Shown here piece after piece: positions 1-63,405 of a stretch of 64,000 bases of DNA; the stretch's first letter is position 1; the number at the start of each line of letters is the position of its first letter. A program made the translations under genes and the position numbers. Source of the DNA: Phoronis australis. Taxonomy: Eukaryota; Animalia; Phoronida. Location of the stretch: NCBI GenBank assembly GCA_002633005.1, contig NMRA01000076.1, forward strand, positions 372,001 through 436,000. Reading direction: 5' to 3'. The notes beneath the pieces are model-generated. The model searched no databases, was not told the DNA's origin, and saw only the letters and a program-made list of their open reading frames with translations.

Positions 1-81
1 GATGTTTAAATTAAAGTATGTTTATTTCAAACTTTTTTTTTTTAAGTTGACTTCATGTATAAAGTTCTTGATATGTTTCAG

Positions 82-1107
82 TGGGCTAAGCAATCGTGAA
101 AACATCCAGCCATCCGAAGATGCCTCACTGGCGTCCTCTGTTGGCTCCGATGCTATGCGGCAACGGTTCTCCGTGTCCACCCATCCGCGCCTACCTATGC
201 TGCTCTGCTCAGACGGATATCTAGTCACGGTTCTTTCCCTACCCGAACACATGACAAGTCTGAAGGTGCTACGAGAACTAGTTAGTAAAACAGCACACCA
301 TGTGAATAGAATAAAGGATGCTAGTGATATTGGGTCCACTGTGCCGGGAGGTACGGTCAGTGTTGAGCCTGTGATGCAAAGCACATTGAAGTCGGAAGGA
401 TTGCCGCTCCAGCGTCAGTACAAGTTTGAAGAGTTTGATGGTAGTCTTGGCTCTACACTGGGCAGTCTGGCTGACACTGTTGTGCAAGGCAAGGCAGGGC
501 TACCAGGTGTTTCTGAACTTGAGTCGGGCAAGATTGTGTTCAGTGGCATGGAGGCATTTGGTAAAGTCACCAGTAGTCATAGTAAAGACCCGTCTAAACT
601 TGAACATGGTGAAGTAGACTATGCTCAGATAAAGCTTGGTCTTTTGACCTCCTGGGCCTTGTTGGCGTCCACTAGTGACTTGTGGTCAAAGGAGTATGAT
701 CAGATGGCTAAATACACTGTACGTCATCTCTCGCGTTATTTGACATCCGTGCTCACTACAGACGTGCCTGTTGCAGTGGAACATAAGGCACCAGGCAAGA
801 ATTGGGACGGCAATCTCTACCATGTGTTAGTCATTTTCCGGACACTATTGAATTTTGTGCTGTTTGATGGACTTCGTCAGAATTTATATGGTGCTTCCGT
901 GAAGTTGACTCACGGTATTGTGAGGTCGGTGTTGGATAAGTCTTGTGATAGTACAACTCGGTCTGTGTACAAGACAATGTCGGGATGCTTTGGCGTCCTG
1001 GAGTTTGCAGAGCGTCAACTGAAACGGTGCTATGGTTGGGATACAGTAGGGTTGTTAGATGATGCCTGCTTACCTAGTGGTGATAGTGGAAACCACGTTA
1101 TCAAAGG
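82..1107 (+). CDS. CPLANE1: CPLANE1 exon w1
   Basis: tttcag| acceptor, AGG|gtgaga donor (phase 2-2); QRFSVSTHPRLPMLLCSDGY motif. Confidence 0.88.
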
Positions 1108-7100: not shown

Positions 7101-10100
7101 CAAGGTACGTGCCTGTTTGATTAAATGGTTACATAGCAACTTACTGTGATGTCTTAAACTAAGCTCTCCTTCAATTTGAGATAAAGAAACATGTCTTTCA
7201 GTGTGGTAATGAAATGAAGAGGTTATGTACGTTCAAGAATATTTGATTTTGTTTACCTTTTCCAAAAATGTTTGTGTCTATTGCAACTCAATATGGGACT
7301 CCAAAACTCTGCTTGTGTTCTGGTGGAAAAGCTGGATAGACTTAATGGTTAAGAGTAAGAACCACGGCATGAGACCGAAAAAGTTGCATCTCTGTGTGGT
7401 TTACTTGATACCGGTTGACCTTCTTACTTACTTCCACTAGATGAAGAAGTCGACTGAGCTCAGGCAAGAGGAGTGGCTGAAACACCGCAGGACGTGCCTG
7501 TCTTGGGGTCTTCACCTCATACCTTTCTGTCACTACCTGCAGTCGGAGAACGACGTTTATACAGTTGTGCTCTCACTGCTCAATGAGTTGCCGCCCGACA
7601 AGGAGGCGGCTGACATCTTGGCTCGTCATTTCCGTGACGCGGAGTCACTCGAGCCAGAGGTTCAGGAGAGACTGGAGAACATGTTGAAAACGTGGCAGAG
7701 GGTGACTGTGAAATCTCAGAGAAAAACAAAAACTGGAAATAAGGTCGTTGCAAAGACTTCTTTATCCACCTACTACCTCAAACTATGTCCAAAATCTGAT
7801 GCTGCTATTGCCAAGAAAACCAAATTCCTGGGTGCTTTTGAAGAATTTATCTTTGTAAAGGAATCGGACTTCTTTGTAACAGTTGGGTCGCGACCATTTG
7901 AATGCGAGCTGGACTATTTACAGTTCATGGCCACTTTCTTTGAAGTGTGTTTCTCAAAATTCCTTGACGAGCCCAATGTTCAGTTGAAGCTTCCTCTGTT
8001 GTTGCCGTTTTCGAAACAGATATGCGCCGAACACGTGTTCTCCATTTCGAGACAAGCTGTGCTCGGTCTCAGAGGCAGAGAGGAAAGCGACGAGGTCTTG
8101 TCATGTCCGTCACCATTCAATGAATTTGCTCGTTCCCAGCAGAACTTGTCGGGTACGAGTACTCCCATGAGACGAACAGAGGCTAGAAGAAAGGTCGGAC
8201 TGTTCAGATCCCGCAGCACAAGCGACATCGGCCAATCAGGAACAAGTACAAAACATCAGCCACGTGTCCTCTTCAAAAAGTCCACTGCAACTGTAGGCAA
8301 TTTGTCAAGAGTTTTAAACAGTAGTAAAGACAAAGTTGCAAAGGTCAGGGGGTTAGATGTCACAAGTTCAGAGGTCATATCCCCATCACCCGGTTTGATA
8401 AACAGGAGCAGCAGCCTGCCTGCTTTAGACAGGATTCATCACCAGCCCGCATCAGTTCTCAGTCCACTGGCTCAAAGAGCCAACATAAAACGAATGCTCG
8501 GTAGCACATACATGGAGGTCTATGATGTGTTACTGTGGCTTGTACACTGGGCATCAAGGCACCATCCATTAGACAGAGCCGAGACGCCACGCCAAAATAA
8601 TCCGTCCATGACTGTTAAAGTCAGCGCAGCAGTACTTACAAAATGCCTGTGGTTGATAGAAGAGCGTTGGAGAAGGAGTTTGGACCTCTCGCACGTTGAT
8701 TCAGGGAACCGTAGCATAGAGCAAGGGATTACAACGAGCCCTCCGGATTTTGTAGATGTTGGAGAGGTGAAAAGTGTTGATGTAGGTCATGGGACTCAAT
8801 ATTTATCAGATAGTTTTCAAGTGGCGCCATCTTTTATGGGTTCAGCGAATTATAACAATAACGCTGATGATGTTGATGGAGAAAGACCGGCCACCTCGAA
8901 CCGCTCCAATCCAGAACCTGTGATACGTGGTACCACCACACCTGACAACAACTCTTCACCTTCCCCTGTTGAAGAGGTCATCAGAAGTGCGGGTCAGAGT
9001 TCAGCTGCGATTGCTGATGCTGAATCGCAGGAAGACGCCATCGACGTCAACACGAGGAACCGTTCCTACTCAGGCCTCGGTGACATTGATGGAAGCAGTA
9101 GCTCAGATTCTGACTTAATCAAGGGGAGAGATCATTTGTCAAAGCTGGCCAATTGGCACACTCCTGGCAGACTTGATTCTAGTGTGGTTCTAGAGTTGAA
9201 GGAAAAACTGAAGACTGGAATTCATCTGAAGGGACTAGACTCCAGTGATCATGGGCTTGGAAAGGTTGTACGAAGTCCTGATGGTAGTTTGGAAGACGGT
9301 AGCGTGTCGACAGAGTCCGCTCCCAGGTAAGCATGTCTGTTGGGCTCTGAATGTCTGTGAAGTTATGTAGGATCCTAGAAAAATGTTTAAATTTGCTTAT
9401 TTTTGATCACCATATCTCACAAAATGGCTGATTGGACATTTCACATTTTACGCATTGTGCTCTATTCCTTTCAATGCTGGTGGAATTGTTTTTAAAATGT
9501 TCCAATTTTGCATACAGACTTTTGTAATACTTGTGAAATACTTAAAGAAACATAAAACGAATTGATATTCGTGAAAACTGTAACTGTGTTTTTGAGATTT
9601 CCTTGAAATTTGATCCTGTTATTGGTGCCCTTGTTTTGCTATACCATGTACCTTAGTTTTGTTTATGGTAAACTTCCTGTGACCCAGTTATTGACAGATT
9701 AGTTATTTACAAATCAAAGGCTTTCTCGTTTCAGAAGAGATATTATAACTTTTAAAGAGTTGATACCTATAGTTAAGTAGATAATTGACCTATCGTAGGC
9801 TCTGTTCCCTTGCGTAATGTTGACAAACAATAAGTTTTATCCGACAATGTGTTGTTTGTCGGGTAAAATGACGGCTTGAAAATGAAGGTGTGTCAAGAAT
9901 GCTGTGCTCTGATTGGTCAGATGAGCTGTCACTCAAACTCCTGGTGATAGGTGAATTACTCAGACTTGTCGATAAAGTCCTACACAACCTTAAAGACAAT
10001 TTACTGACATGAATTAAAAAAACAAACTTTGGGAAAGTAGCAACTTGAGAAGAATGTTACTTTTTAATTGACACTTAGATTGTATTTGTGGTTTTATGCA

Positions 10101-13100
10101 TTGTTTTATTATTGTCTTGTGTTAAATGCTTAATTTTTTCCTGTTTGTTTAGTTTTGGAGCAGGTGTCATCACGCGTCCTGGTGGAGCAAGCTCAATGAA
10201 AGAGAACCCCCTTTTGAACAGGTAAGTACGTTGGGTTCAGTGGGATTTTGTACAATTATTACAACACATTAAAAGTTGACAAAGGGTCGGCCTGTTTGCT
10301 ATAGATAAATGCAGATCAATTAAACATCTTTAATTAGTCAATCATGTGATTCTGAGTCTTGCCAATAACTGTGATTTTTATTGAACTCAAAATGTGGGTG
10401 TGGCAATCTGACCTTTACTGACCTCCACAAAATTCTTGCAACAAATTACAAGAACTCTTTCTATATGCAGAGCCCTTACCATGTAAAAACACTGCCATAC
10501 TTAATGGTTCAGTTCCCATGGTAAGGGTCATTTATATGTGGTTAGAGCTTATGTGGTGGGTAAGAAGTGTTCAAGTGTGGTAAGTGTTTATGAGGAAGTG
10601 GTCACGGTTTGATTAACACCTCTGAAAGTCAGTATATTGTCCTTTCTCTTAATTATCACTGCAGTGTGCACTTAAGGAAGACTCGGTCCAGTAATGACCC
10701 TGATGTCAAAGGTCAACCCAATGTTAGTCCTCTGCCTGTTGCGCACTCACATCAGCAGTTCACACTGCCATCTTCAGCCGTTGTCGGATCTAACGTTGAT
10801 GTAGCATCTCACCTTCAAACTATCGTACGCTCAGAGTTGGTTAGAGTTCTACAGGTATGCAAAGTTTAGCTTTGTGTGAACGCTTTGAATTGCTGTTTGC
10901 TGACTCTTGAAATTTCGAATGCCACCTTCAAAATTTATTAGATCCATGCTCGTTTTTAATGAAATCTACATTACAGCATACTCTGTCATAATAAGTGGAT
11001 TTCTTGCCTTTTGTTTTAAAAGGATATCTTGGCTCAAAATAATTTTGACAGTAATTTGTACTGAAATTTGTGTAATGTCAAGTGATTTGGAATCTTCTTT
11101 TTTCGGCTGTATCTTGTAATTGCAAATGAAGTTTATGCAGACTTAACACAAGTTGATTGGTTCACAGTATGAAGTGAAAGTATGGGCTTCAAGCAAAATT
11201 GAAAAGTTGGCTGGGCCTGAGCTGCTCATAGGCAAATGCTATCAATTATTTTTTTCCACATACTATGAGCCAAAAAACCATTTCATGTCTCCTTCAATAA
11301 AGAGTGGGTATTTTAAACCCAAATATGGCAAGGTGCCACTGATATTGGTCGTTTGCTACCCAGACATGTGCGAGCTGTGTATATTTTGTGAACCAAAATT
11401 CTCACTAGATGGACGTTCACAAAGACAGTGACATTTTTAAGTCTTAGTCTTGTGAATTGATTCGCTAAGCTGAACGTCTGTGCTTAAAAGTGAAAATTTG
11501 GAAATTTCAGGGTTCCTTGTGAGGGACCATGGGTCTAATTCCATACAAGTACAGTAATATGTAACACGATGCGAGTTTATTACTTTTAAGTGTAACAATT
11601 GTTTTTCAGATTCAGCATGAAAGTTTGCTTTCTCTCTTGGGAACTGGCGTTATCATTCCGTCTCATTCTACCAACGGTGTACCTCCTGGTGGGATGTCCA
11701 CCCAGCCTCAGCGACCTGCTGAGCTTGACACACTTTTGCAAAATACTGTACCATCTCATTCACAAACGGAGCTGGTGAACAAGAAGGCGAAAGTTGAAAG
11801 AAAAACTGAAAATACAAACGAGGACTCGTCAAACGAAGGTCTTGAAAGTATTGGGAGTCAGTGTCTGGGAGCGACTTCAGAACTACACGCAACTCGCCAG
11901 TCGCTTAAACCTTTGTCTAGGTCATGGATGAGGACAAAGGACACGCAGACCTCCCCGTCGTCTCCCCCTGTTTATGAGGTCCTCAGGGAGTTGCAGAATC
12001 TACAGCAAGAACTACGTTCTACTGAGAAGCCAAGCCGTAAAGGTATGGTAGCAAAGTGTGTGGAGAGTAGGGTTGTATACTAGAGAGGTATGGGGTCAAA
12101 GTATTTGGGGTAGGGTTGTTTACCATAGAGGTATGGTGTCAAAATATGTGGGGAGTAGGGTTGTATACCAGAGAGGTAGGGTGTCATAGTATGTGGGGGT
12201 AGGGTGGCATACCATAGGGGTATGGTGGCAAAGTATTTGGGGGGTAGGGTTGTACAACACAGTTGCTTTACCGGATGTCAAAAGTATCTGTTGCTGTTTG
12301 CACCAGTCCTATATTCGACTAATGGTCATTCCTCGAATTTAAGAATTTTGCCTATGAGCGAAATCAATATGGTTTGAGGTTCTCTGTTCAATGCCCCCTC
12401 TGGATTTTTACATTTCATCATTTTAACGCTCCCAATAATATGTAATAATAATAATAATGTTTATTGATCCTCCCGTTTATGTTTACTTTCTTCGTAACTG
12501 TGAGTTCTCACTTCGTTGGTACTTATACAATGATGGGGTAGACTTTGACAACATAAACAATTGTCATCTGATGTTTGATTATGTTTCATTGTCTGAATCT
12601 TTGTCCGACTCCTTTTGGAGCCCCCCAGATACCTTGTCAGTTTACAGAATGTAATAATACTGCTAATTTGCAGGAGAAACAGTGCATGGTCTTCCACTTT
12701 TAAATGCCGGGTTTCTGCAAAAGGATGGCGAGAGCGAAACTAAGGTCACAAGAAGTGAAATGTCCTTGTCCAGGTATTCTAAACTCTTACGTATCGCCGA
12801 CGTGGAAGAACCTTACCGCTTTCCCAAGATGCCCGGCAACAATCAAAGAAACCAGACGCAGCGTGCCGCCAATGCTAATCGCCCATTGCTTGAAGTAAGT
12901 GGTGAAGAGTGTGATAACGGTGATGCTACTCCTGTGGCTGCTGAACTTGGGAATAAACAGAGGGGGTTTCCCTTGCTGTCGGCCCGTCCACCACCGACTG
13001 TGCAAGACATGGAATTGGTTCCGCCAGAGAAAACCGTGGAGCACATGCAGGCTCACCAACAGCAAGATGTGGTGAAGCAGCGCTACCTGCTTAAGTTTAA

Positions 13101-16100
13101 CCAGCACTTGCGCATGCAGGAGAAGATAACGGAGATGAACATTGTGGAACAGAACAAGGGTTCCTTGCCGTTGCTGGGGTTTGGAACTCTCGATGGCGGT
13201 AGGCGTCCACGGCCGGCAGCAGAGCTGCTTCTGCCGAACTCAGATCAGTTGGTTTCGAACGCACAGCAAAATCAGGACAAAGTGAAAGAGGAGTATTTGA
13301 ATAAGTTTCAGCTGAAAGTGCGCCAGCGGGCCGGTGAGGGCAGCGGAGTCCAGCCACCAAAGCTGCTTCGGATGGAGGCGATGGAGAAACGACGGCAAGA
13401 TGTTGTGGAAAAGGAACAGCCAACCTCACAGTTTCTTGGCAATCAATCTCTACGGTTAGTTACTGAACGTAATTGTTCATCATGATAATTTTCTACAGGC
13501 TGACCCTAAAGGTTAAGCCCACTCAATTGTGTAATTATTATTCTAAAATCTTATTCGTTTGGAAAGGACAATAATTTCAATGCGAACCGACTCTTTAAAT
13601 GTTGTGGAAATGAATTAATTTCGTTAAGTTTACCAAATTTGATGAAAAAAAGTATTGATGGAGACTTGCTTAAAATTTTTATTCTGGTGGTGTTTTTTTT
13701 TGGTTCACTCAGCATTGTATTTGTATGTGTTAATTTCTCTTGTATACTAGAGTTTAATATGAAGATCTTTAGCTTCATCAGCAAAAGTCACTGACGGGGA
13801 TCCTGCATTTTCAGAGCCATTTCAATGCCCATTATTCAGTGGATATTATTTTTTTTTCAAAATGCAAGATCCTTTCAAGTGACCGTTAACAAGCAGGCTT
13901 GTGTTATCTAAAGTCACATGCACAGCAGTGCTGAAGAAGGTCTTTAGTGACATGCTGTGCTTTATGAAAATGATGGTTAAGTAAGAATATAGACACTCAT
14001 GTTTCAATGCGTTGCTCTTTAATGCAGTGTTGCATTTGCATTGGTGTACGTAAGACTGTCTTTGCCACAAGAAATTGTCTTTCATAAAAGGAACACACAG
14101 GGAATACCTTGGATTCCTTCATTGTATTTCTTTTCCATTATAATGTTTTGTAAAAGAGTCAGGCCACTGTGTTCGTTATGAGAGTTTCATCTAAAAAGAA
14201 ACCTGTATATCCAATTTTGATATTCTGTATTAGTAAGTGCTTTGTATACTTGTGCTCAGTTCATAACGGCCTTGTATTTGTACTGCAGTGGAGCCTGCTT
14301 AATGTCATACTCCCGTTTATGAAGTAGATTATGATTTTAAGCGGGAAATTCCGTTAATCGTGTTCCCTCTTGACGGCGGCCATACCTACTCTGATACTCT
14401 GTTCATACTAAGTTGAGAGTCAAGAAACAGCTAATTTTTACCCTCTCATCGGAGAGTTCCGATAAGGCAAAATGAATTTGAAAAGGAATTAGGTTGGTTT
14501 TTGGATAGAAATGAGAAGGTCAAGCAAATAAGCGTTTGGGAGTCAATTTTGGTGACTTTTTATGTGAGAATATGCCAATAAATAATCGCATTACGTGGGT
14601 TATTTTTCATTTTTTCCCATTTCATGACAATAACCGATACATGTTTTTATCCAGCTTGACACTAAGTGAGCCCCACTATATTAAAGGTTACAGCGTCGTG
14701 CCAAGAAAGAACCTCCAAACAGCGCAGGGCGATCATTAAGTCGGCCACCAGCAACCAGTCTCCTTGGAGATGACCAGGTCGACAAAGTGCCTGTATCTTC
14801 AAGCCAGCCACCTGAAGCCAGCCTCCCCAAAGTAGCTCCATCGTTGACGGACTCAAGTGCTCAGGTTGGAACAGCAATGGATGAGGCTTCAACTCAAGTG
14901 GCTTTGAATGAATTAGCTTATTCCAAGGTATTTTGTGGTTAGAGTTGAAACCATATTTGTGGAATTTGTCTAAAATTACTTGTTTTCTAAATCAAGGCTT
15001 GGAATTTTTCGTGGAAACGCGGATTTCCGCTCTTTTCAAATGTTCTGTCCGCGTATTTTATTATATTTCCGCGTAAAAAAAATCGGATTTGATATAAAAT
15101 TTCCGCGACAAATTTCTTTCTTACCGCGGCGTTGCTGATTACTTTCACCTCGAAAAGCGGAAGTTGCTCTTTATGTTTCGGAGGAACGTAAATTGTCAAC
15201 ATTACCGGGGCACCTGGGATAGCGTGGTGGAGTTCTTCAATGGCGTCTCGTGTGATTGTAAAGCGCGGTGACAAATACTACGACTCTGCAGCCAAAAATG
15301 TGTGGAGGTGGGAGTGGCTGACGAACTAAAAAGACGCAGACGCACGCTTCTGGAGGTGGTACGTTTTTTTTTAGTCCTCCCGATTTTTGTTGATAAAAGG
15401 TCCACATCGGTGGGTGCATGTTTTGGGCCGTAAAATTCCCCGCTTTTTTTGTCATTGGTAATTCCAAGCCCTGCTAAATGTTGATGGATGATGTCCTTTT
15501 TATGCGCCCACATATTTATATGTGGACACATTATGCCGTCATCTCCGTCCGTCGTCCGCTGCTCTATCTCCAAAACGCCTTGACATATGTTCATGAAATT
15601 TTGCACATGTGTTCCTTCTATGGATGGGACGGCTTGAGCAAATTTTTGGCGGATCCGACTACCGGTGTGCCCCCTAGTGGCAATTTTTATTTTTTTACGT
15701 TTACCTCAGTATCTTCAAAAGTCCTGAACGGATTTTCATAAAATTTGGTATACAGGCATCTGTTAATAAAGTGACGCTATCTCTCCATTTTCGGATGGAC
15801 TCGACCTAGTTTGCGCCACCTAGTGGCCATTTTTACTGTTTTCGAGTCTGTTTTTTGGCGTCCACTCATCTATCAACCAAACGGCTTTCAGGATAATTGT
15901 GAAAATTGGCATGTATGTTTTTACTACGAAGTGGACGGCTGACGATTTTCCGCCGACTTCGACTACTTTGGCGCTTCCTAGTGGCATTTTTTGCTCTCAT
16001 AGTTGTATCTCCTAAAACGTTTACAGGATCTTTACTTAATTTAACAAGTGTATTTATATGATGTTGACAACGGACGACGACGACTTTCGAACGGATCGGA

Positions 16101-19100
16101 CTACTTGTGTGCCCTCTAGTGGCAATTTTATTTTTTTACGTTTACCAGTCTGTATCTTCAAATGTCCTCAACAAATTTTCATAAATTTTGAATATAGGCA
16201 TCCATTGTTGAGCTGACACTATCCTCCTGTTTTTGGATGGAATCGAGGTAGTTTGCACCACCTAGTGGCCACGTTTGCTGTTTTCAAATCTTGTTTTTGG
16301 CGTCCACCCCTCAGTCAACCAAATCATTTAAGGGATGGTTTTGAAAATTGGTGTATATGTTCTCAGTGTGAAGAGGATGTTTGATGATGGCAACTGACTA
16401 CTGTGGCACCTACTAGTGGTAGTTTTGTTTTGTTTTGCACCCATAGCTATATCTCCTAAACCCACTGCAGGATCTTTATTAAATTTATTAAGTGCATTTA
16501 TATGAAGAGATGATGACTTTTAGGCAGATCCAACGAACGCTGTGCCCACAAGTGGCAATTTCATTTTGTTCTGTTTTCATTTGTTTCCCTGAAGTTACTT
16601 GACAGATTTTTATGAAATATGGCATGTTTCCGTTTTTGGATGGATTGTACGTTTTTGCACCATCTAAGGGCCATTTTTATGATACAAATAAATAACCCTA
16701 AAAGCACACCATTTGCAATGCATTCGTAGGCGCATTCCAACGCTCGGCGTTGCTCTTGTTATACAACGGGCTTTTAACAGAACACTTGTACTAGAAAATG
16801 AATTTCCTAATGGCTGTTATTTGTACACATTTGTTCTGTTATCAGACTTGGCTGTTCTTCTCTTTTTATGAGAATACCATAAATTACATTGTAAACCGTT
16901 CCTGTTGGCAAAGACTATCATTCTTTGTCTCCTTTTACCAAAGCTGCGTGAGTAAATTCAAGGAAGCACATAAAACATCACTGCTTTTGTAGAATGATAC
17001 CACTTCAGCATTAGTAAGTGTTCTTGCGAAAACACTCAGCACCTGTGCACAGGCAGACAGGTGGGCTACTAGTCGGGTTGGCGATATCATTTGCACGCTG
17101 GATAAAAACGCAAAAGTATTCGACATGGAGTTTCTCACCAAGTTGTTTGACCGCAGTCTCCAATGCGCCCCTGTTGTGGATCCACTTACCATACAGAGGT
17201 TGCAGATTGAAGGTGATGGCCAGTCTTCAAATCAGCGACACGTCACTTGGGAGGCAGTAAATGAGTCTTTCATGAGAGACAGTGGTCATGGTAATAACGC
17301 TGGAGGTACTAATGGACGAGGTAATGCTGCTGGCACGTCGCAGAACGAGGTGAACAGCAAAGATGTAAGGCTGACAGAAGTGAGATCTGATCGTACAGCT
17401 GCAGGACCGAGTTGTGTCTCAACACGTGGACAGAAGTTACACTCGGCTGTGTCAGAGGGTAGTCCTGGTCTGAAAACAAAGACTCTTCAAGCCCTTGATG
17501 ATAACGTTGGAGATCAACAACTACGATTACGTCATATTCGACGAGATGTTCACGCCTTCATGGATGCATTGATGGTTAATGTCGGTGAGATTGCTGCCTC
17601 TTTGTCTGCTGCCACTCAAGAATCTGGCTCCGCAGGGAATAGTCGCACAGCCATCCTTCTCGAACAAGAAGACACGCCAAGAAGTTCACACATGGCGCCC
17701 ACTGAGCGCACGGTTTGCCCATCCAATGTCGTCCAATCCGAGTCTAGTCCTACACAGCTGCAGTTTAACAGTAGCACAATGCTGTCACAAAATGACGTAA
17801 CCGTGAATGCTAACCTATTGGATAATTTCTCGTCGTTGAAGGCGCTGGCACATCGCAAGTCTGACGAATTGTTTCAGATGGCTTTTTTCAAAAACCCAGA
17901 AATTTCAAGCGAAATCTGCGACTATTACAGTAGAATCGAAGTAAGGTACGCTGGTAGTTTGAACCGACAACAATCTCTTCATGCATTACTGCCATGGTTC
18001 CACCGTATTGACAGAGCGACAAGAAGCGACCCATTGTTCAGGATTGATCAAGCTATACAGACTTGTACTGAAGTCATAAGTAATGACATGACTGACCAGG
18101 TCACTGTATTTAGTAATAAGGAATTGAATGTTGTAAGCGTTACTTGTTCTGGTTCTCAAGTCGATGTTGTTGACTGTGCCAGCCAGTGTGAGTTGATATG
18201 CACGAATGTTGCGTTGCAGTTCGAGAATCCATGTGTTGAGTGTGAAGAAGACGTCTCTTACCTGCGTGTTGATCTTTTACCTACTGATGACAATATTGAT
18301 GACATTCTCCTGCTGTCGCCAGATTTGCTGCAACTTTCTTCGAGCCTGTCATCCGTTCCAGATGTTTCTGAAGTGACGAGTCTAACTGAACTGCTTCCCC
18401 AGGATGCGGTTCCCAGAACATTCAAAGAAAGGGAGCCTTACAGTGTTGGCACTGGTGTTCAACCAGATCAAGTATTGTCAATTTCCCAAGGTGTTCAGAC
18501 AAAGCTGTGTAGTTCGGTCTGTGTGCAGTCTGACACTGTGCCCTCATGTTTGGCGTTTGTTCAGAGTATCCACAGACTTGAGAGAAGTACACAGGCTGAT
18601 GCTGTAATCTCCATGGAGAGAGCGTCTCAAGTGAAGCACTGTGCTGTCAAGGCCACTCAGTCAGACTCTGCTAAGGAGAACTCTGTCTTGTCTCAAACTG
18701 GGCCAAGACAAGATTCTACAGCGCAAAAAGTGCAAAGCCTGAATGATGGCATCAGTAACTCTGCTGTTGAAAGTATTTTGCATGCTGATTCCTTTTTGCA
18801 AACTAATGATAACGCTACTAGAGATCGAGGAACTGAGAGCCAGCAGTTTGCTAGTGTATGTCAGTCGTCCGAGTCCAGTCTGTCAGTGATTTGTCCATTT
18901 AGGAATCCACGGGCTCATCACTGGTCCGCAAGATGTGAAGAGTTCTCGAGAATTGAACATGTGACAAAAGTGAACAGTGAGGCGGCACTACAGGAGTCTC
19001 CGACACCCGTGGACAGTAACGGTCATGCAGAAACCTTACCCAAGTTGTCTTCTGGGTGTACACAAGCAAAGCTGCTGTACTCCAGGAGCTCCAAGGCGAG

Positions 19101-22100
19101 GCCGATGTTGGCGGATAATGTCGCCATCGAGGCTCATGACTCAGCAATGCAGGAACAAACTGGGATAGCCGAGATGGGTTTCAGCAGTTGTACCAAAGCA
19201 GGGTCTTTAACCAACGCTATTGGTGTCCAGGTGGAGAGCCCATTCATGAGCAGTTCACTTGATTGTGATGGAGTTGGCTGTCGAACTGAATGGCGAGAGC
19301 AAGGCGTGCAATGGGAAAACCTTTCCAGTGATGGTGTGCCTGCAATGGCGACTGAAGATGCTTCTATGCAGACTTGCCGTTTACCTGTTCAGAACCAGTC
19401 CACTCAAGACTCACTTAGACTCGATGATGGTCTCTGGACAATCTTACCCGACTCCACCTCTGTGGAGGACACCAACAACAATGTTGGGTTGGAGGTTGTT
19501 ATATCTAATGGTGGAGATTTTGATGAGTCTGACAATTACGATTTTTCTATTGAAATAGGTTTTGCTGAGCCTTCCGGTGTTGTCTTGAAACAAGTTAACA
19601 TACAGGAGGTAGACAGTGATTCAGCTGTGATTGGCTGTGTTCAAGATGCCAACATTCCGCATCCAACATCATGGAGAGAATCACGCTTGAAAGAGGTGTG
19701 TGACTTGGGCAACCAGACAGATCTTCCCTATGGATCACAAAGTGCTGTTTGTGGTGATGAGAAAATCTCTGACGTTGCTCTTAGTCGTAGCGTTCAAGAA
19801 AAATGTGTACAAACTGATACAAAGGTAGAAAATCAACACATACAAGTTGATGAAGAATTTCTACCTTCTTGTTCCAAGTCTCAAACGTCCGTAAGAACCT
19901 ACTGCCGAACACCGAAAAGTATTCTGCCAGATATTTGGCACAGTGGTTGTACTCAACCACTTTCCTACAGAGGCAAACCTTTCCGAGTTAAAAGGAAAAT
20001 TTTCAAATCCTTGTCTTTGTGGAGAGGAATGCCTCATCCAGATTTACGGGAACCAATTGCTGTCTGCGAAGAAAACATCAACCCATTACCCTGTGCAAGT
20101 TTGCAACAGACTCGTTTTTTTGATCTGAATTCTTTGTCATGCACTCTCAGTTCTAGTTCTTATCAGTCCTGTACATCTGGAGTTGATCAAGAATGTAAAG
20201 TTGCTGAAAACATTGCTGCGGAAGAGGTTCCGCTGTGTGAAAATAGTAATGGTGTCCCAACTGGTAAAACAGTGACTTGCAAAAGCGTGGCGTCTGCAAG
20301 AGGTAGCCAGTCATGTGAAAATTTTATGAAGAATCACTACAGCAAACAATGTGTTGAGGAATCGGATCTTGTCACTGATCTTGCCAAATTTTCCAGTGAA
20401 CAGTTGAAAGAAATTGTCGAGTCCTCAAATCACGAAGTCTGGGTGGTACCGCCGTGTGCCGTGGCCAAACTGTTAGACATCGTCTCGCAGCAGGACACTG
20501 CGACTCTGTGTGGACAAAAAACTTTCATTGCGAAGTGTCTGAAACAGTGCATGAATGAGAAGGTCAAGTCATACTCCAGTTTTCTGGAAAATTCCAGTGA
20601 AACCGTCAAGGACAGGCGTGGACGTTACAGAAAGATGGACCAGCAAGCGTTTCAAACGGCTATAAAGGAAAGAATGTACAGGCTGTCAGAAGATCTTTGC
20701 AAAACTTTGAGTAGTAATCTTGAAGATTTTCCGCCATCGTTTGTGGGAAACTTTAATGGGGAGGCTGACGTGGACGCCAGCAGTGCACCTGCTGATGGTG
20801 ATTACACCCCCCACCAACACAACTCTATGGTAACCAACAGAAGCTTTCTAGACTCCCAGGCTCTGGCAGCAGTCACCCCTTTGCATGCTGTTTGTTGTCC
20901 ACCATTGTCGCCATCACCAAGTTACCAGGGACCAATACCTAATGCAAGTGAAATCCGGCCGCAGTGTTCGATGGTTAAACAAGCATTTAAGAACCTAGTG
21001 CATGCCTGTTCCACTGTTGGCCAAGTCCAGAAAGATAGAGATACATTTTCTTGCAAAAACAATCCCGTAGATGTGTGTACAAGGAAATGTCACAGTGTGT
21101 GTTTACAGCAGTCAAGAGTGAGACAGGTTTTCATGGACTTGTTTCACACACACTCTGCAGCTGATTCTAATTGGAATACGTTTTGCATGGTAACATTTTT
21201 GTTTGGCTGTATGCTTCATGTTTTTTGTTTGTTTTTTGTTTGTTTGGCTTTGTTGTCTATCCTTAAGTTTTGCCTCTGAAATTTTACTTTTTAAGGTGAA
21301 AAATGTGGCATTTTTGAGCAGTCACTTTTTCTGATCTTAGTGGTTTCGATCTTCTTTACATGTAATTTTATAGAGTCCCTGGCTACGTTATCCTGTTTTT
21401 GTTTAATTTCACGTCCATTTTTGTTGTGTTTCTTTGTTTAGTTTTTGTTACAACTTCATACAATTTTGGTTAGTTTTTCTTTATTCTGTTCTCTGTTATT
21501 TTGTTACTTTTTGTAATTATCATTGTTGGCTTTTCGGAATTTCTTATTTTGGTTCTTGAACAAACCTAACTACAGCTTGTCTCATTTCAAAAGGTGTCGC
21601 CTGATTCTCACTAAAAATAATTAAACTCAAGGTCCTTGGCACCCACTTAACTGAAATGATCTGACCAGCTGTGTTCAGCATCAGCTGCAACTTCACTCGT
21701 TTGTTTCTGAGGCAAATCTCGTGTGCTTCCTTATTGTATAGCATCGAATAGAATGTTCACATGCAGATGCTTGGCTGTGTTGCCTTTAACAAAAGAAATC
21801 CTATGCCTAGATAATACGAAATTGTACTAGAATCAAGTGGGTGACAATTTTTAAAATGTTCAGGATGAGTTTGGCACATTCAGCTTTTGTATAGTTTTGA
21901 TTGACACTCTTGAAGGTACAGAGAGAACCACCTGTTGACGAGTTGAAAAAGGAGGGTTACTATGATGGTCAGCAGTCCAGTATTGGTGATCAGTCTATGA
22001 ACATGGGACTAGACGATGTGCAGATAAACCAAGGATATGTCATTAAGCCAGGTAGGATATTTGTTGGCAGCTAATGGATTTCGGGCACCCATTTTATTAA

Positions 22101-25100
22101 AGGGGGTAAGTCCTGTCGGAGGGATGTCCTGTCAGATTGTCCAAGGTATGTCATTGCAAACATGTTGCTGTTTTTAAGTGCGAAAACATGGCAACAAGTA
22201 AATTTTTCATAACCAAAGTTTACCATCATGAACCATGTTAATGAGCTGAATGCCAATCAAAATTGAAAATATGCCTAATTATTAGTATTTTTGTCACTTG
22301 TTGTCTTTTTTTTCCTCTAAACTTGTGTTAACTTTATTTCAATTCAGCAACAAATTCATCCGTCCGTTTTTTGATTGGCTTATGAAGAAATTTTATTGGA
22401 TTTAAAGAAAGAGGCAACAAGTGTATAATGGCAATCAAAATCATTAATTAAAAGAATTTCCAGGTTAACCAAATGTATCTCTGTGTTGGTTTGGCCCAAA
22501 AGAGTTAGAAATACGAGGTAATGCAACAAAGTGGATATAAAGTGGTGTGTAGGTTGTTACTGGTTTGCAAGAATGAGCTTGCTGGCAAAAATGATCTGCT
22601 GCAAATCAATAAACTTTGTCCGTTAAAAGAATTTTAAACCCTGTTTTCCCGAGGTCACCAAAAGCTTGTTTGGTCACCTACTGGTGTACCTTTAGTTACT
22701 CTATTGACAGGTAGAAGCACTATTCAAGTGAGACATTTCCACCTGTGTCATGGATTGGTTTTATGTTTTGAGATAGATGGTGTTTTCCGAAAGCTGTCCG
22801 AACTCGTNATAGAAAGTGGTGTGTAGGTTGTTAGAAATACGAGGTAATGCAACAAAGTGGATATAAAGTGGTGTGTAGGTTGTTACTGGTTTGTAAGAAT
22901 GAGCTTGCTGGCAAAAATGATCTGCTGCAAATCAATAAACTTTGTCCGTTAAAAGAATTTTAAACCCTGTTTTCCCGAGGTCACCAAAAGCTTGTTTGGT
23001 CACCTACTGGTGTACCTTTAGTTACTCTATTGACAGGTAGAAGCACTATTCAAGTGAGACATTTCCACCTGTGTCATGGATTGGTTTTATGTTTTGAGAT
23101 AGATGGTGTTTTCCGAAAGCTGTCCGAACTCGTCACGGCTAATGCAAAAAAGAAATCGGCCTGATTTCTGATGAATATTGAGGAATTTTTGCAATTAACA
23201 AGTGCACACAACTCATTTTTTGGGGAAAGTTTGGGTTGGAATCCCAGCTCTGTGTTGCTTATGTTTCTTATGTAGCTGGGGCATTTACATTTGTGTTTGG
23301 TTTTTGTATTTAGATTCCATAAAACATGATATTGAAACAATGGAAACAGGTGTTATCCTATTTCATGGAAACGTTGAATTCTCACAAGCCATTTTGTCTT
23401 TGTTCAATAGTTCTTATCCTTCAACAGGAAGTTTTGACGACCACTTACCAGAGAAGCAAACTGATAACAATGCTGGCATTCATCTGAGAGCAGCACAGGA
23501 GACTAATAGACAGGTACTGGTGTCTACGTTTCTTATTGAGATTTGGGAGCTAGATAATTGTTTATTGTCTTCAAAGGGTATTTTAGCCATGCGTGCTTGG
23601 CACATGAAATGGCATGGTATGACAAGCAACTTGTACAGACTGATTGCAAACAACGACCTGCCAGTTCTTTCAAAGCCCTCAAATCTCCTCCAATCCGAGT
23701 TACGAACAATTTGAGATGAACTCCGTAATTATAGCACGTGGTCAAAATTTTTTTTGTGGTGGAAGGTAGGTTTGTAGCCGCTTTAAGTCTTTGGATTATT
23801 TTGGATTCATTGACATTTGTGCAACATGTTCAGCGCCCAACGTTGTTGACTACGTGGGTTTGATGTTACTGATGAAGGTTATGATTCATCCAGGTTAATG
23901 TATTATGACAAATAGTTCAGCCAGACGTACTTAGTTAAAACTTTATGTTGCAGGGATTACAACTGTCCCCTTCTACAGACGGGGGTCGACGGGCTGTCGT
24001 AGGTCTTCCCACCTTTCCTGTGAATCTGTACTGGTGTGACCTCTGTTGAGTAGTGAGTGAAATGCCCTCTGCCAGGTTTGGATAGGAGCGAGATTCAACC
24101 TATCTGAACCCTGGCAGAGGCATTTCACTCACTACCCAACAGAAGTTTGCGCCAGTACAGTTTCACAGGGAAGGCGGGGAGGTCTGAGGCCGCCATTAGA
24201 CCATCTTCTATAGAAGAAGACAGTTGTGATTCCGGTAACGTAAATTTTTAACTTGGTGTGTCCTTATGAAATAATCGTAATTAGTCACATACATGGGCTT
24301 GGTGCCATATTGTGTTTGGACGTTTCAAAGTTTTTTAATCTGTTGCTATTACAATCATGTAAATGATTCTATTCTTATTTCCAATGCCATTTCAGGCTCG
24401 CTTCTTGCCTCCTGCTGAGGATCAACCACCAGTTCCCTCTGTTGCCCATTCTGTCAAACAGTCTTCTGCCGAGGAACGCATGGAGGAAGCCATAGACGAA
24501 TATTCGTCTGCCAGAGGTCGCCACATTCTGGCTCCAGACATCTTCATGGGCCTGAGGTTCGCCGATGCTAACGCTCATCCTGGTTCGGGTGTACTGTCCT
24601 CTGAGACACAGGTAAGTAGTTCCGCGGAAGTGCAATTGTAGCATATTCAGAATGTCAATTATGTGGGTGTTTCTGTAAGCCTCGCTCGCTACCAGTTTTT
24701 TGATCATGATGGATTCTCAAGTGAATATACATGACAGCAAGTTATTCATCATCATGCCTTTAAACTGTCATTTGCTGCCAATGTCGGATGCATCGAACCT
24801 GTAGTGAGTGAATTATAATTTGTCAGTGAAACTGTGTTATTCTTTGCCAGGAGCCTACATCTGGAAGAGCCTATCTGAATGTTGCTGACATGGATGCAGA
24901 CCTAGTCAGTGCCATTCTGCAGACTCGCTCTCCCCGTCCAGCAGAAAGGCCAGTGACTCAACAGACGTCTGAGCCGATGAAAGAGGAGACTGCAGTGACA
25001 CCTATAGTGGGAGATTCTATTGAGGAGGAAACTGTGGCTTTGGCAGATAGGGTCACGGTGGGCCTTCTGGGGCAGAAGTCTTCTCCTGAATCTGAGTATG

Positions 25101-28100
25101 TTGCACAGATAGGTTATTCTTAGCAAACATTTTTAAGTCTGGTCTGTACGCCACCATTTCGCCACATTACGTGAATTAATGAACATAAGTTGGAAAAGAT
25201 TTCCACCTCGACTGGGATCGAATCTGAAATGTTTTTGATCTGTATTTCAACGCTGGTTCAAGATATACGTACTCATAGGTTATTCTTATCGCACATTTTT
25301 ATTCGACTGCGTTATTATCCCTGTTTATTGCTTTGGGAGACTTCCAAATAATGAGTAAGGTTGTGTCATCGCACATGGCCTGATGCAGTACCCTGGCTAT
25401 AGAGAAATGATTCTGTACCCAAGACGATTGCTCAAAGTCAAATTAGCTACATGAGGCAATACTTGGCTGCTTATCTGCACTACATGGGTTGGTATGCTTC
25501 GAAGTCACTGCTTAATCTTTAATACGGGGTTTAAATTTGTGTATGTTGGCACTCGGTGTATACACACCCTTGTATTGGCACAGGATACACACTTTGAAAA
25601 ATCCCACTGCACTTGGGAATTGTAGTTGGCATCGATTAATTGTCCAACCAAAACTTTACGGCATCTTGTGACACAGCGTTTTTAGAAAATGGATTTTGTG
25701 GCAATTATTTCAAAAATGTTCTTTCTCCACTAGGAGGCAGGACGCGATGGTTCACCTGGCCAAGAGGCTGCGCAACGTGCAGAAGAGTAAGATTGCCCAA
25801 CGCCTTCAAGAGATGGATGAACAGTTCCAGGCTATCAGTCAAGTCAGCCAGAAGGTGGAGTCGGAGTTCAGGGACACCAAACTAGTGAGTAATCCTATTC
25901 TACCAGACAGTCACTCATAACCTACCTGCTAATCACTCCCTCTAGTGTTTGATCATGAAACTATCCCATTTCCATACTTTTGGTGCATGACACGACGAGC
26001 CATCATGCGATCATGTTGAGCCTTGTCCCAGCCAATAACTACCTCAAGTTCTTCGAAACCCCACAAAGTACTTCTAATCTGAGTGAAGAGCAAGGTGAGA
26101 TTGGTAGTGAGTAGCCTAAATGAGAAGCTATTTTTTGTCAGAATGCGCGTGCGTAAAAGTTTCATCTTACAGCGGTGCCATTGCAGTAGTGATGTCTGGT
26201 GTCAAAATTTTGGGTAAGTAGGAAAGAGAGTGCCGGATAAATGAAATCAACACAGGTACAGCTAAGGTAGTGAGAATATGATATGGAGTACTCCAGAATA
26301 CAGACATGGTGTTTATGTTATGTAATGAAATATGTATGTACGGTTTGTTGTCAGCCTTGACCTGTAGCAGTTTTGATGTGTACTGTGAGAACAATGTTGT
26401 TCTCTTCTTCCTTCAAACAAATCACGTGGTCAAGACTATGACTCTTACACGTTGGCGTGTGTTAAAAATGTAGTCGAAGCAGATCCAGAGGTCCGTTCCA
26501 AGAAAACTTACTTAGCTATGACAAATCTTAAATTTCAGTCAATTTTAAGATAAAACTTAGATTTGTCTCAAGTCCGTTTCATAAAAGAGATCTTACGTTT
26601 GACTTATTTGTGACTTAAGTTTGTCTTAATTTTGACCATCTTACCGGATGTGGAAGTTTCAAAGTTTTGAAGTTGAGACAAATCTTAGACTTAATAAGTC
26701 AAAAGTTCTCTTAAGTCAGTTTCTTAGAGTGGGCCCCAGGACTCTGTAAGTGATTATTGCCCAGTTTTGTTAAAGAAGGAGATGTGGTCGTAATCCTGTG
26801 GTCTTTTGATATTGATATGTTATAAGCTCGTTGCATTGGGGAGAGGCTAACGCTTTTAATGCAAAGTGCAAAAATGTATTTCTGAATGTTTTATTTGCAG
26901 CTGTTGAACACTGTGGAAAACCTTGCTCAGGCTTCCCATCCGAGCCAGTACCCCCCAGCTGAAGTGGCGCAGCCCAAGCTCACTGTCACCCTTGCTGATG
27001 CTCCAGAGCAGTCCACATCTCCTCAGGGGCCACAAGCAGTTGACAGTGCACGGTATGCACAGAAATTGCCATCAACGCAGTTGGATGTTATTGTAAGTGT
27101 CAGCGATGACTTCAATGACTCTCCACTCAGCCATCACTCTGAAGCGTCCAGCAACAACAACAGTGGGTCTTCTTGGTCTAAGAGTCCAAGGTCAGCGAGC
27201 ACGCCAAAAAGTCAGCGAGGGGTGAGTCAACTATCCGCCGCTTTCGCTTCGCAAACTATGGTTTACCAGAAGTTAGCCAGAATAAACAGACATGCAAACC
27301 AAAGCATGCAAGTGAATAATACCAGTCCTTTTGTTCAATCTAGAGGGTAATGTGTATAAATTATAGGGCTGCCAACTGTTATGAATATTTGCATACTCTA
27401 CAATCTTTTAGGACCTGAACATTCACTATATTCATGTTTTCAAGTGTTATGGATTTTGAGTGGTTGTTTCTCTTCAAAAATCTAAAAGCAAAAAATATCT
27501 TAATAGTTGAGAGGACAATATCTGAACAAGAAAATGTGTCCTGAGTACTGGGCACTGGTATATAATATGTCCTGAGTACTGGGCACTGGAATATAATGTA
27601 ATTTACATGCAAGATTTTCGTTTTGTGACTGACCAATGAAAAATGCCCTTAGTTGACGTTGCATTGTGAGGATCATTGTTGAGAGCGAAACTTCAGAGAC
27701 AAATATCACGTGGAATTAAATTAGATTTAAGAATTGAGAAAAGGAATTCACCGCATTTCGTCACTGTACTTCAGCATGGAAAACTTCGGTGCCTACAACA
27801 TTGGTATTGATCAGTAAATTGCAACGAGATATTTAGTGGTACGGAGTAGTCAACACAGAAAAAGCAGACAACATGGATGTAATGAGCTGAGCTTTTATGC
27901 ATTGTTTTTTTTTATAAACACAATGTGAATCTGAAATCTTTTGGGGTGTATCACACTTTCTTGATTGAAATTTAAACTTCTTGAAAGTTTTGGAAACCAT
28001 GCAAGTTTTCACTTGCAAAATATGGATTTTTAACTTAGAAGTTACAGGTTATGTGCTTTATGGGTTGGCAGCCGTGAAATTAAGACTACACTGAGCAGAT

Positions 28101-31100
28101 GGCCTAGTTAGTAATTTAGTAAGCATACGTTAGTTAGTAAGCAGTTGAAACATTTATCGTTGAATAAATGGATATTTGCATTATTGAGTTGCAATTTGTT
28201 AATATTGAGTTGCAATTTGTTAATTCTTTTGGAAACAAATCCATTTATTATTAATCAAAAATCCCTTAGATGACTTACTACTACCCAAAGGCTGCCAACT
28301 TGTGGCCAAACAAATCTTTATCGGCTGCAGGGTTAGGGCATAGTTAGGTCAAAGGTCAATGGTTCTACCATAGTCAACTAGGGACATTCATTTGGAAGTG
28401 TAGTGGCCATAGTTCGAACTAAGGCTTCAGCTGCAAACGGTGTATGCTAAATATATTTGCGTGTTCTCATCTGTCTAGCTGTGACGCTCTCAAATGATGT
28501 TTGGGACAAACTAATTCTGCTTGGGGTTGTTAGAAGTAAGGAAAGTTGATGCTCATTATTGTATGCATTGTTGTTAAATTGAGTAAGGTGTTGTTGAATA
28601 TCCAATGATACTGGGGATTTGCATTCACGGAATTTGGCTCCTGAATGTTAGGGGTCTTGGTTGTTAGTTTGAAACAAGTGAGACAGTTTCGTGTTTGAGA
28701 AAAAAGTCAGTGGTCTTGAGTCAGTTCTTTTAGAAACTGAGGTAACTGCTAGCTTATGGAAAGTGTTACAGATAAGTTTTTATGTGTTGCAAGTGCACAA
28801 AGAACTTCACTTGCAAGTCAATGGTGCATGAAGCATAAGAAAAGGGAAATGCTTTCATGACGATAAATACTGTATTTAAATAGATATTGTGAAAAAACTG
28901 TCATTGGAGATTTAACAAAATCAGTGATATCCTCTGGGGGTGCAGTGACCATTTGAATAGATTAGTGATTAATCAGTGACATACTGTTGACAGCAGCCTT
29001 GTAGTAAAACTGTCTATATCAGCTGATGTATGGCTTACCTTCAGGATAGACGGTCCAACTGATGCCAGTCTGGGCCATTGATGTCTCATTGTTGGGCCAA
29101 ATATCAACCCCATTTCCCTCTGATTGCCATTTTAAAATCATGCAAACTTCCCCTAGTCATGCCAAAATATCCAACTTCATGTGATTAAAAAACTCCCCTC
29201 AAGGTTAAAATCACTTTTCTGTATTCCGTTAATTTTGGCTTTTTGAGGCTGTACTGATAAGGATTGGGGACCAGGTTGGGAGGCACAAGTGCTTTTCCTT
29301 TCAGGTGAGCGAGAGCCCTGCTAGCCGTAGTATTGAGTTACATCCCTACTTTTATAATTTCAGATAGTATTGTTTCCAAAATGGAATCTATGTTTTTAAA
29401 CTGAGGAATTGAAGTGTACAGGATATATCGTTTAAAAATCAACTGGTACCACGGTCTACTTGTAAACATTGCTCTGTAAAACTTATTGTAATCGAAAGTT
29501 GGTTTAAGATTAATTTTGAAGTTCTGGGAGAAAGAGATTGAAAAATTTGAGCAGCGATAACTTCCATTTTCATTGTTGTCAGATATTATTTAATATTGGT
29601 TTATGAGCAGGACATTTTTACAGCCTCTCCACAATTTGAGTTTTTCATCGTAAAAAATGTAACAGCGCCATCTATCATCTTTATGACAGCTGAATGTGCT
29701 GTGTTGATGTGGCATTTAGTGACTAACTTTTAATGTCACATATATATCATTTAATTGTAGTCCATCTGACACTTGTTTTAAACAAGTCAGTGTAATGGTT
29801 GCCTAGCAACAGTGAGGCTGAGTTTTTCCTCAAACATTCCTGCGTTCACCAGTGCATGAAGGAAATGAGCTGTTTTTAGATTGGCTCCTTCATGAGGTGG
29901 TCTCAGTCAAAATATAATCATTCAAGTGTCAAGTGTATTGTAAGGAAATAGACTGAAGTGTATAATTTATTCGTGACCACTGAACTATTTCACGATGTCA
30001 CGTTGCTGTCAGTAAGCTGTTTGTTTTTGTTTTCTTCTGTTGTTGCTAGGAAGATCCAATTTATTTTAATATTGCCTCGTGTCTAAGGTCAGTAAGCTTG
30101 TAAGTTGTCTGGAGTGAGATAGTATAACAAGATATTACTGGACATATTTCAACTGAATGTGTAGTCATTTGCTGACATTTTTTTATGGTATGTATAGTGG
30201 TGATTAAATTGTCCCTTATCTCAACCTCCAGTATTCCTCAAACGGTGCTTTTTTGTCTGTTTTCTCACCTAGACTGAATGTCTCTGTATAATGCAAGCAC
30301 ACGCCCGTTTGATAGCATTGTTATTTCCACTAGATAATTTTCTATAATAATTCCCTGGAGATTTGTACAAAGCACACCATTGCTTATAGCAAGAATTTAT
30401 ATCTGCATTTTGTTCTGTTGTGAAAAAATATTTTGTGTCTGCAAAAAATTCCAGAGACATACAGAGCCAAGTGCACACTTCTGAGAATAGCGACCGTTTT
30501 AGATTTTCTCGCTCATTCTCTTTTTGACATGGTTGGTAACAATATTTTTTTTGCAGAGAGATGACACCTCTGTTGCTGGGCTCAGTGGACTGACAGACAT
30601 TGTTGCTAGTATTATTGAGGAAGGAGGGTCCACATTTGAAATCAACGCTGGCCTGAGACAATATCAGAAAGACAAGATACTGAACAAAGCCAGGTAAAGG
30701 GAAACTGGACTGGTGGTGCTCAAGTCAAAAGCATAATTTTGCATTATTAATTACAAAAATCATTATTTCTCACCAGGGAATGCATTGTGCAGTAGTGTAT
30801 TTGTAATTTGTGACAAAGAGACTCTTATCGCAAAAATTACTTTTTTCTTAGGGGCATGTATATGATGCTGTGAGTTTTCTTGCTTGTAGTTGTTTGCATT
30901 CATGGTTTTGAACAATTTTGAAGAAAGAGGAATTTTTTAAGTTTTTCATTTTTTTAACAAAAGTGCAATGAACAATATTTCATCACAGTCATGTTTTCAT
31001 CCCTACGTTTTTCTTCATAACCCACATGACTAGTAGTGTTTTGTCAGCATTTGCTTCAATGAAGTGTGCCTTTGGAAAATAAAAAATAATGGTTTACAGA

Positions 31101-62994: not shown

Positions 62995-63405
62995 ATCATA
63001 TGGAAGTACCATTCAATCATATGGATGAACCACTGAATCATAGGGATGAACCACTGAATCATAGGGACGAATCACTGAATCGTATGGATGAAACACTGAA
63101 TCATATGGATGAAATACTGAATCTTAGGGATGAATCGCACAGAACCACTGAATCGCATGGATGTACCACTGAATCATATGAATGTATCACTGAATGATAT
63201 GGATGAAGCACTGAATCGTATCAATGAATCACTGAATCATGAATCACTGAATCATAGGGATGAATCACTGAATCAAATAGCTGAAAGACAGAATCACAAG
63301 GATGTACCACTGAATCATATGAATGAACCACTGAATCATTAGATGAACACCTGAAACATATGGATGAAACACTGAATCATTTCTATGTACCCCTGAATTA
63401 TATGG
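62995..63405. repeat. 21-bp minisatellite, about 19 degenerate copies, in a HOOK intron
   Basis: Unit gaaccactgaatcatatggat. Confidence 0.92.

Follow-up and report, generated by a model that had tools for sequence, protein, structure and literature searches.

A giant cassette exon in a predicted CPLANE1 gene

The stretch of DNA analysed here, called the window below, covers 64,000 nt of the Phoronis australis genome (contig NMRA01000076.1, positions 372,001 to 436,000 of the forward strand) and carries a gene that we assign by homology to CPLANE1/JBTS17. Within this gene lies a giant exon whose product contains a row of glutamine (Q)-anchored motifs resembling the sites bound by LC8 (DYNLL), a general dimerising hub. 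A model had proposed, from the letters and translated open reading frames (ORFs) of the window (the sequence-only reading), that the exon adds a ladder-like LC8 scaffold to CPLANE1. The positions of the features are given in Table 1.

The gene assignment rests on sequence comparison. The conserved start of the ORF at 7441, used as a HMMER query, gave 98 matches; the full-length ones are either named JBTS17/CPLANE1 or are unnamed proteins (from Lingula, molluscs, Owenia, Tubulanus, amphioxus, a hemichordate, Nematostella and fishes). The tblastn matches of 18 full-length representatives are collinear with the window exons from position 68 to the end of the gene (best E 5e-48), and 12 of the 14 homologues scanned pass the cut-off of the Pfam Joubert domain; the name proposed by the sequence-only reading is borne out by both results. 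Eight single ORFs of the window gave no Pfam match, the Joubert domain being split over exons. Since residue 365 of the Lingula protein aligns at position 68, the 5' end of the gene must lie before the window. When per-exon scores were summed, Lingula and the molluscs came out on top (a ranking of scores only, not a tree), which makes a lophotrochozoan source probable. An initial word-index search with the same ORF had returned nothing where HMMER returned 98 matches, and blanks from searches of that type are weak negatives.

The RNA reads came from four runs: X1, X2 and X3, with the same species label and from one study, and X4, from another study; the splice joints were taken from 15 of the 193 listed. 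Read depth was about 7-33x over 17003-19960 in X1 and X2, on the + strand, similar to that of other exons. The ORF (16993-21279) begins directly after a TAG acceptor. The 5' join of the exon is supported by 8 reads in each of X1 and X2, whose overhanging letters match the exon end at 14927, and its 3' join (21189>21916) by 18 reads in X1 and 27 in X2. What had been read as a "giant exon 1" is indeed a transcribed giant exon, but it is not the first of the gene and it ends at 21189, not at the stop of the ORF.

One feature had escaped the sequence-only reading: some of the transcripts skip the exon. The skipping join, 14927>21916, was found in 14 reads of X1 and 4 of X2, and in one X4 contig, so that at the 21916 acceptor the inclusion:skip counts were 18:14 in X1 versus 27:4 in X2 (Fisher p = 0.011). 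Inclusion and skipping junctions lie at GT..AG sites and both keep the frame, as expected of a cassette exon. X1 and X2 both show two alleles in the reads inside the exon, which favours splicing over a deletion allele provided that each run represents one animal, pooling being possible. A separate nested or intronic gene was ruled out: both ends of the exon are spliced to CPLANE1 exons. In X3, over 2900-22790, the gene was nearly silent and the exon uncovered; as the gene is expressed in X1 and X2, which belong to that study too, this points to tissue-restricted expression.

A regular row of Q-anchored motifs

Translation of the 16993-21279 frame, with every Q context listed, recovered all 15 motifs named in the sequence-only reading, and the canonical KDTQTS that it had placed in an ordinary exon was found in the ORF 11565-12083. 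The announced spacing of about 10-12 residues turned out to be an exact alternation: the nine Q residues of the row (exon positions 490-578) are separated by 12, 10, 12, 10, 12, 10, 12 and 10 residues. With the 10-12 spacing window, which is the sequence-only reading's own, the longest chain of Q has nine members, against at most seven in 3000 whole-exon shuffles and 3000 shuffles within 100-residue blocks. With a wider window of 9-13 the p values were 0.003 (whole exon) and 0.0013 (blocks). The comparable longest chain is 1-3 in all 18 full-length orthologues and 1-2 in the second giant ORF of the window (see below).

The row is a degenerate, old 22-residue tandem repeat. Its autocorrelation peaks at lag 22 (z 4.2) and lag 44 (z 5.7), and at the DNA level the strongest lag is 132, followed by 66. 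Between units, just 5-7 of the 22 residues agree; no column is invariant apart from those of the two Q anchors and of a D, at +2 from the first anchor. Because the register of the repeat was fixed on the Q residues, these columns are suggestive and do not amount to a test.

Table 1. Features of the CPLANE1 locus (window coordinates)
Feature	Position	Strand	Description	Basis
CPLANE1/JBTS17 gene (predicted)	1..52288	+	5' end before the window	collinear tblastn, Pfam PF15392 in homologues, source names
Canonical (K/R)xTQT site	11931..11954	+	in an ordinary upstream exon; site at 11946	
Exon upstream of the cassette	14797..14927	+	start approximate; Q at 14862 and at 14895 mark two weak motif-like sites	
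Giant cassette exon	16993..21189	+	1399 codons (4197 nt), in phase 0 at either end; most of it predicted to be disordered	RNA reads
Motif cluster	18043..18225	+	Q anchors 18058, 18097, 18157, 18184, 18217	
Regular row	18439..18732	+	8-9 Q-anchored LC8-like motifs; decayed 4 x 22-residue repeat, alternating 12/10; anchor Q codons 18460, 18496, 18526, 18562, 18592, 18628, 18658, 18694 and a weaker ninth, 18724	motif and spacing counts
Motif cluster	19213..19413	+	Q anchors 19228, 19309, 19369, 19405; only 19228 good	
Motif cluster	19699..19890	+	Q anchors 19714, 19810, 19843, 19882; good matches 19810 and 19843	
Exon downstream of the cassette	21916..22051	+	conserved G-Y-x-I-x-P-G landmark at its end, about 40 codons past the insertion point	
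Two predicted exons over the T-x-T segment	23428..24600	+	23428-23513; second from 24396	GT/AG, phase, alignment

Motif enrichment and the scattered sites

Enrichment was expressed as the number of motifs observed versus the mean for shuffled exon sequence. Over the whole exon, three classes stood above their shuffled means: [TVI]Q.[DE] (10 versus 2.06), G.Q.[DE] (5 versus 0.49) and [TVI]Q[TV][DE] (3 versus 0.30). The density claimed by the sequence-only reading stands for these classes and fails for two others, to which we return. The signal lies in exon residues 341-965. Around all 91 Q of the exon, enrichment was seen for hydrogen-bonding residues at -4 (p = 0.001), small residues at -2 (p = 0.003) and acidic residues at +2 (p = 0.009); the same preference at -4 and +2 is described in the LC8Pred paper.

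The strictest class required anchors matching those of measured binders, without a proline before them, plus D, E or P at +2. Outside the repeat it was represented six times versus 0.87 expected (p = 0.0007), and G.Q.[DE] four times versus 0.43; LC8-type motifs being enriched there, the signal is more than a residue of the repeat. Beyond the row, the further clusters announced by the sequence-only reading are present, though by the rules of the LC8Pred paper two of their anchors are poor, 19309 for its W at +1 and 19405 for a charged residue there, and a cluster at 18058-18217 had been missed; in the latter, 18157 and 18184 pass the strictest class. The canonical site upstream is the only one in its ORF (1 observed versus 0.01 expected); reads cover the exon that holds it, 25 + 22 of them supporting the join 12042>12674, and TQT-like sites occur in a similar place in the Lingula and Tubulanus orthologues.

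That the row might instead be an SQ/TQ cluster for ATM/ATR-type kinases could be suggested by the S or T that precedes four of its nine anchors. Four others are preceded by V, which is not phosphorylatable, and over the exon [ST]Q shows no excess (20 versus 17.0, p = 0.25) while VQ is enriched (13 versus 7.5, p = 0.03). We rejected this scarcely credible explanation.

Quality of the individual sites and structure predictions

Several observations weigh against the exon being an LC8 scaffold. The [TVI]Q[TV] core is not significantly enriched over the whole exon (5 versus 2.37, p = 0.08), the strict ELM-type pattern [^P].[KR].TQT and TQT itself are both absent from the exon, and several of the motif classes were chosen after the sequence had been seen. 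The regularity of the row is explained by an old 66-nt duplication, selection not being required. Among measured single-site binders the +1 residue is T in 57 of 62 rows, the rest having I, C, V or P and none having S, A, W, D or K; the +1 residues of the nine row anchors are T (two), V (one), P (one), S (three), A (one) and K (one). Only three of the nine row sites pass the anchor rule, none is in the strictest class, and one has both an F at -2 and a hydrophobic +2, which are disfavoured by the LC8Pred paper. Even perfect anchors are no guarantee, as many peptides that have them fail to bind LC8 in the LC8Pred paper. Finally, the 10-residue step leaves a linker of two residues, shorter than in KANK1 (3-4) or Nup159 (4-5), so that some sites might stay empty. 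Most row sites, taken as isolated peptides, would probably not bind LC8.

LC8 might instead engage no more than a handful of good sites spread along the chain (18157, 18184, 19228, 19810, 19843 and the canonical 11946), the row being a decayed or partly filled remnant that forms no rigid ladder and, at most, an ASCIZ-like heterogeneous complex. The best sites are indeed scattered: all six strictest-class matches lie outside the row, whose +1 residues are mostly absent from measured binders and whose shortest linkers are below those of known rods. Against this, the row has kept Q at 8 of 8 anchors and D at 4 of 4 positions while the rest diverged, and the non-canonical sites of KANK1 do bind when closely spaced. 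We regard the restriction of LC8 to the scattered sites as rather improbable.

Single-sequence AlphaFold models of residues 340-589 and 200-1399 gave no confident fold (mean predicted local distance difference test score, pLDDT, of 38 and 33), a weak indication of disorder since they were built without an alignment. Over the row, pLDDT was below 50, and the charge-hydropathy index slightly positive (0.24, 0.01). A predicted complex of four LC8 chains, taken from a metagenome contig, with two row pieces of 49 residues scored 0.25 and 0.14 against a mark of 0.34; the score is uncalibrated for peptides and disordered chains and was not used as evidence. The Q-anchored strands could also assemble with one another, stacking their Q in a parallel beta ladder, or bind a different strand-binding partner: the spacings are even, beta-branched residues stand before each Q, and the row contains four cysteines. 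The models, weak as they are, show no confident beta fold, and the scattered sites have the acidic +2 typical of LC8 sites, so that we consider self-assembly or another partner highly unlikely.

An LC8-like site in CPLANE1 orthologues and in the human protein

The exon is inserted close to a segment that, in orthologues, carries LC8-like sites of its own. Just downstream of the G-Y-x-I-x-P-G landmark, which comes after the insertion point, 1-3 such sites are found, with cores T-M-T, T-N-T, T-S-T or T-Q-T and often a D or E at -4; M and N anchors are present among measured binders (myosin Va, KIBRA). T-[MNQS]-T occurs in 17 of 19 orthologue segments, versus a mean of 2.7 and a maximum of 10 in 2000 shuffles, a count to be read with the facts that the rows are related and that the pattern was picked after viewing the alignment. 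The landmark alignment missed four of the 19 rows, which were placed by profile. Two alignments match the vertebrate site to different lophotrochozoan sites, so that homology of a single site is unsettled. In the window gene, no T-x-T site was found in this segment if 23513 joins 24396, a splice deduced from sequence.

In human CPLANE1 (Q9H799), residues 2554-2562 are one of the 374 LC8Pred hits of PMC6607443 (Table S2), with Saa 21.6 and Svp 2.67; the table row gives it no LC8Hub or Mentha record. The first seven letters of the site, as printed in that row, are those of the gar and sturgeon site. In the Nematostella protein, LC8-like sites are enriched independently at residues ~2570-2850, with irregular spacing; over the whole protein, ELM-type sites number 2 versus 0.1 and [TVI]Q[TV] 11 versus 4.0.

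The literature on CPLANE1/C5orf42/JBTS17 together with LC8/DYNLL gave incidental co-mentions only, though unread supplements might hold more, and no experimental test of the human LC8Pred site was found in it. The main text of a 2026 JBTS17 structure preprint (bioRxiv 10.64898/2026.10.05.756796) mentions neither LC8, DYNLL nor dynein, although its supplement could hold a prediction; the C-terminal half of human CPLANE1 is predicted there to be disordered. The gene is not matched in ten supplementary files of PMC5746249 and has at least one row in the supplement of PMC4869170, with RAF1 as bait. In an RSG1 pull-down (PMC12219219), wild type versus T69N, the counts were 898 versus 0 for CPLANE1, 2 versus 0 for DYNLL2 (one peptide) and 16 versus 4 for DYNLL1 (not significant), which is too thin to count.

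Origin of the exon and selection on it

In the six orthologues in which both landmarks could be placed (16 were tried), 351-516 residues separate the conserved helix from the G-Y-x-I-x-P-G landmark. As this is about the length of the skip form, by a rough sum of exon lengths, we take the exon to be an insertion of this lineage; it is absent from the orthologues examined. No relative of it was found elsewhere: blastp against the proteins collected for comparison gave no match at E<=1, no homologue at E<=0.01 came out of 5126 candidates of 769-2449 residues and 2202 of 2450-5000, and neither PDB (at a useful E-value), Pfam nor, for residues 340-600, the ESM Atlas returned anything. An Rfam scan of 14900-22000 and an LC8 pattern search in viral contigs were likewise blank. 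The DNA of the exon has no similarity elsewhere in the window and no self-similarity detectable by BLAST, and a recent repeat or mobile origin is therefore not indicated.

Two points here again tell against an LC8 function. No relative of the exon was found that could show conserved anchors; and the ratio of non-synonymous to synonymous read variants (pN/pS, ~0.6) is indistinguishable from neutral (12 N, 7 S; p = 0.22). None of the 19 read variants is non-synonymous in an anchor triplet, the variants being few. All 19 fall in the 1.5 kb that follow 18430: from 16993 to 18430 no read variant reaches 20%, which may reflect either a shared haplotype or stronger constraint on the exon start, where helices are weakly predicted.

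The exon could also simply be a lineage-specific, weakly constrained disordered spacer. The row would then be what is left of an old tandem duplication of 66 nt, and its LC8 likeness incidental in a chain rich in S, T, V and Q. The 22-residue/66-nt periodicity persists when the Q codons are masked (0.34 and 0.38 versus 0.25), no homologue of the exon was found, its pN/pS is not below neutral, and the gene contains a second giant, repeat-rich ORF in which most motif classes are not enriched. A mere spacer would leave three things to chance: the enrichment of motif classes outside the repeat relative to composition-matched shuffles, the coincidence of the invariant columns with LC8 determinants, and an insertion about 40 codons from the landmark that precedes an LC8-like site in 17 of 19 orthologues. 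We find it unlikely.

Other features of the window

The second giant ORF (36845-46816, + strand) has 3323 codons, is rich in Q and E and contains repeats of 112, 29 and 26 residues. Matches to the C-terminal part of the orthologues flank it on both sides, but it has no counterpart in them; it holds one full-consensus LC8 match near 39965 and no array. A dispersed repeat is present in two copies about 74% alike, at 14981-16780 and 47879-50041, with an internal unit of ~440 bases; the first copy sits within the intron before the cassette exon and attracts hundreds of reads of 90-95% identity, mostly from other copies. At 22504-23133 a 326-base unit is repeated at 99% identity, with the only N of the window at 22808; this is probably an assembly seam. 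A tandem array of 19 copies of a 21-base unit (62995-63405) lies past the last CPLANE1 match.

Comparison with known LC8 clients

The closest analogue of the row is, in our analysis, KANK1, with its many weak sites, rather than Nup159, with its strong ones. In the L2 linker of KANK1 isolated motifs fail to bind, yet a 126-residue piece binds 7 LC8 dimers and a 306-residue piece 15, cooperatively and as rods; the rod of 15 dimers measures 53 nm, with anchors 11-12 apart (PMC12803091). In both proteins, cytoskeletal scaffolds, a long segment, in the window gene a predicted disordered one, carries many non-canonical motifs set evenly and close together, with no strong consensus site in the row and with similar anchor spacing (11-12 against 10/12). 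They differ in anchors: those of KANK1 are mostly N, S, G or M, often with T at +1, whereas those of the window row are all Q and mostly lack it. Binding, stoichiometry and rods were measured for KANK1, while the window exon is known from sequence and RNA reads; the accessible text of PMC12803091 says nothing of L2 being skipped in KANK1, and sequence homology is not claimed. The KANK1 values give ~3.5 nm per bead, by our estimate close to ten fully extended residues, so a 10-residue step would be at the limit and the 11-residue average would fit the bead.

Nup159 and ASCIZ/ATMIN likewise have Q-anchored motifs in tandem, which lie there in disordered stretches close to coiled-coil-like segments; they are unlike the window exon in that their sites are mostly of the TQT type, with measurable single-site affinity, and that the Nup159 linkers have 4-5 residues; the ASCIZ complexes are heterogeneous, not rigid (PMC10046861, PMC12803091). 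The absence of TQT and (K/R)xTQT from the array makes the Nup159/ASCIZ type less likely and leaves the KANK1 type unaffected, since KANK1 is also without strong sites. The sequence-only reading had taken ASCIZ and Nup159 as models of a rigid ladder: the spacing is near that of known LC8 ladders, but ASCIZ is a poor model and KANK1 closer than Nup159. Its suggested link to dynein biology found no support as regards the motor.

Two further comparisons concern ciliary proteins. Human CPLANE1, an orthologue with a disordered C-terminal half and one predicted LC8 site, has ~3,200 residues, and the vertebrate orthologues examined, the human sequence not among them, show no array. OFD1 and other ciliary-centrosomal LC8 clients are likewise basal-body ciliopathy proteins with LC8 motifs, new motifs having reportedly been gained repeatedly in this system (bioRxiv 10.1101/2023.09.15.557927); OFD1 differs in having a single canonical site, and the main text of that study does not name CPLANE1.

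A proposed splice-controlled LC8 strip

Taking the evidence together, we somewhat favour a reading in which the included form carries a strip of weak sites where LC8 dimers would zip two CPLANE1 tails. We infer LC8 binding, cooperativity, dimerisation, the rod length and any consequence for the basal body. In the groove of LC8 every motif would lie as a beta-strand, the individually weak sites would bind cooperatively as in KANK1, and the dimers would join two tails in parallel; the 8-9 beads, scaled from the 53-nm rod, would give a stiff segment of ~30 nm. Pairing would be seeded by the scattered better sites and by the canonical upstream site. If the exon is skipped, the entire strip would be lost and the tail would return to orthologue length, keeping only the upstream sites. 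Read in this manner, the CPLANE1 of the window is probably a new multivalent LC8 client that can be switched by splicing.

A bolder proposal, which we put forward tentatively and consider possible but doubtful, is that CPLANE1 is an ancient LC8 client, with a small cluster of sites kept from sea anemone to human, and that this lineage lost the cluster and gained in its place about 20 sites in one giant cassette exon. Splicing would then toggle a ~30-nm LC8-zipped rod in the basal-body scaffold and set, by tissue, the reach and the dimer state of CPLANE.

Multivalent LC8 arrays are already known; two features set this probable new member apart, the splice switch and the conserved predicted site in a human disease gene. 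If the proposal is right, the largest CPLANE subunit, whose gene is involved in Joubert and oral-facial-digital syndromes in human, would join the LC8 clients, and the phoronid gene would be a natural case in which one splice choice adds or removes an entire LC8 ladder. Of wider use is the LC8-like site that animal CPLANE1 proteins have in common, whose human copy was already predicted in 2019: through one peptide, it may offer an entry to the disordered half of human CPLANE1, which is poorly understood.

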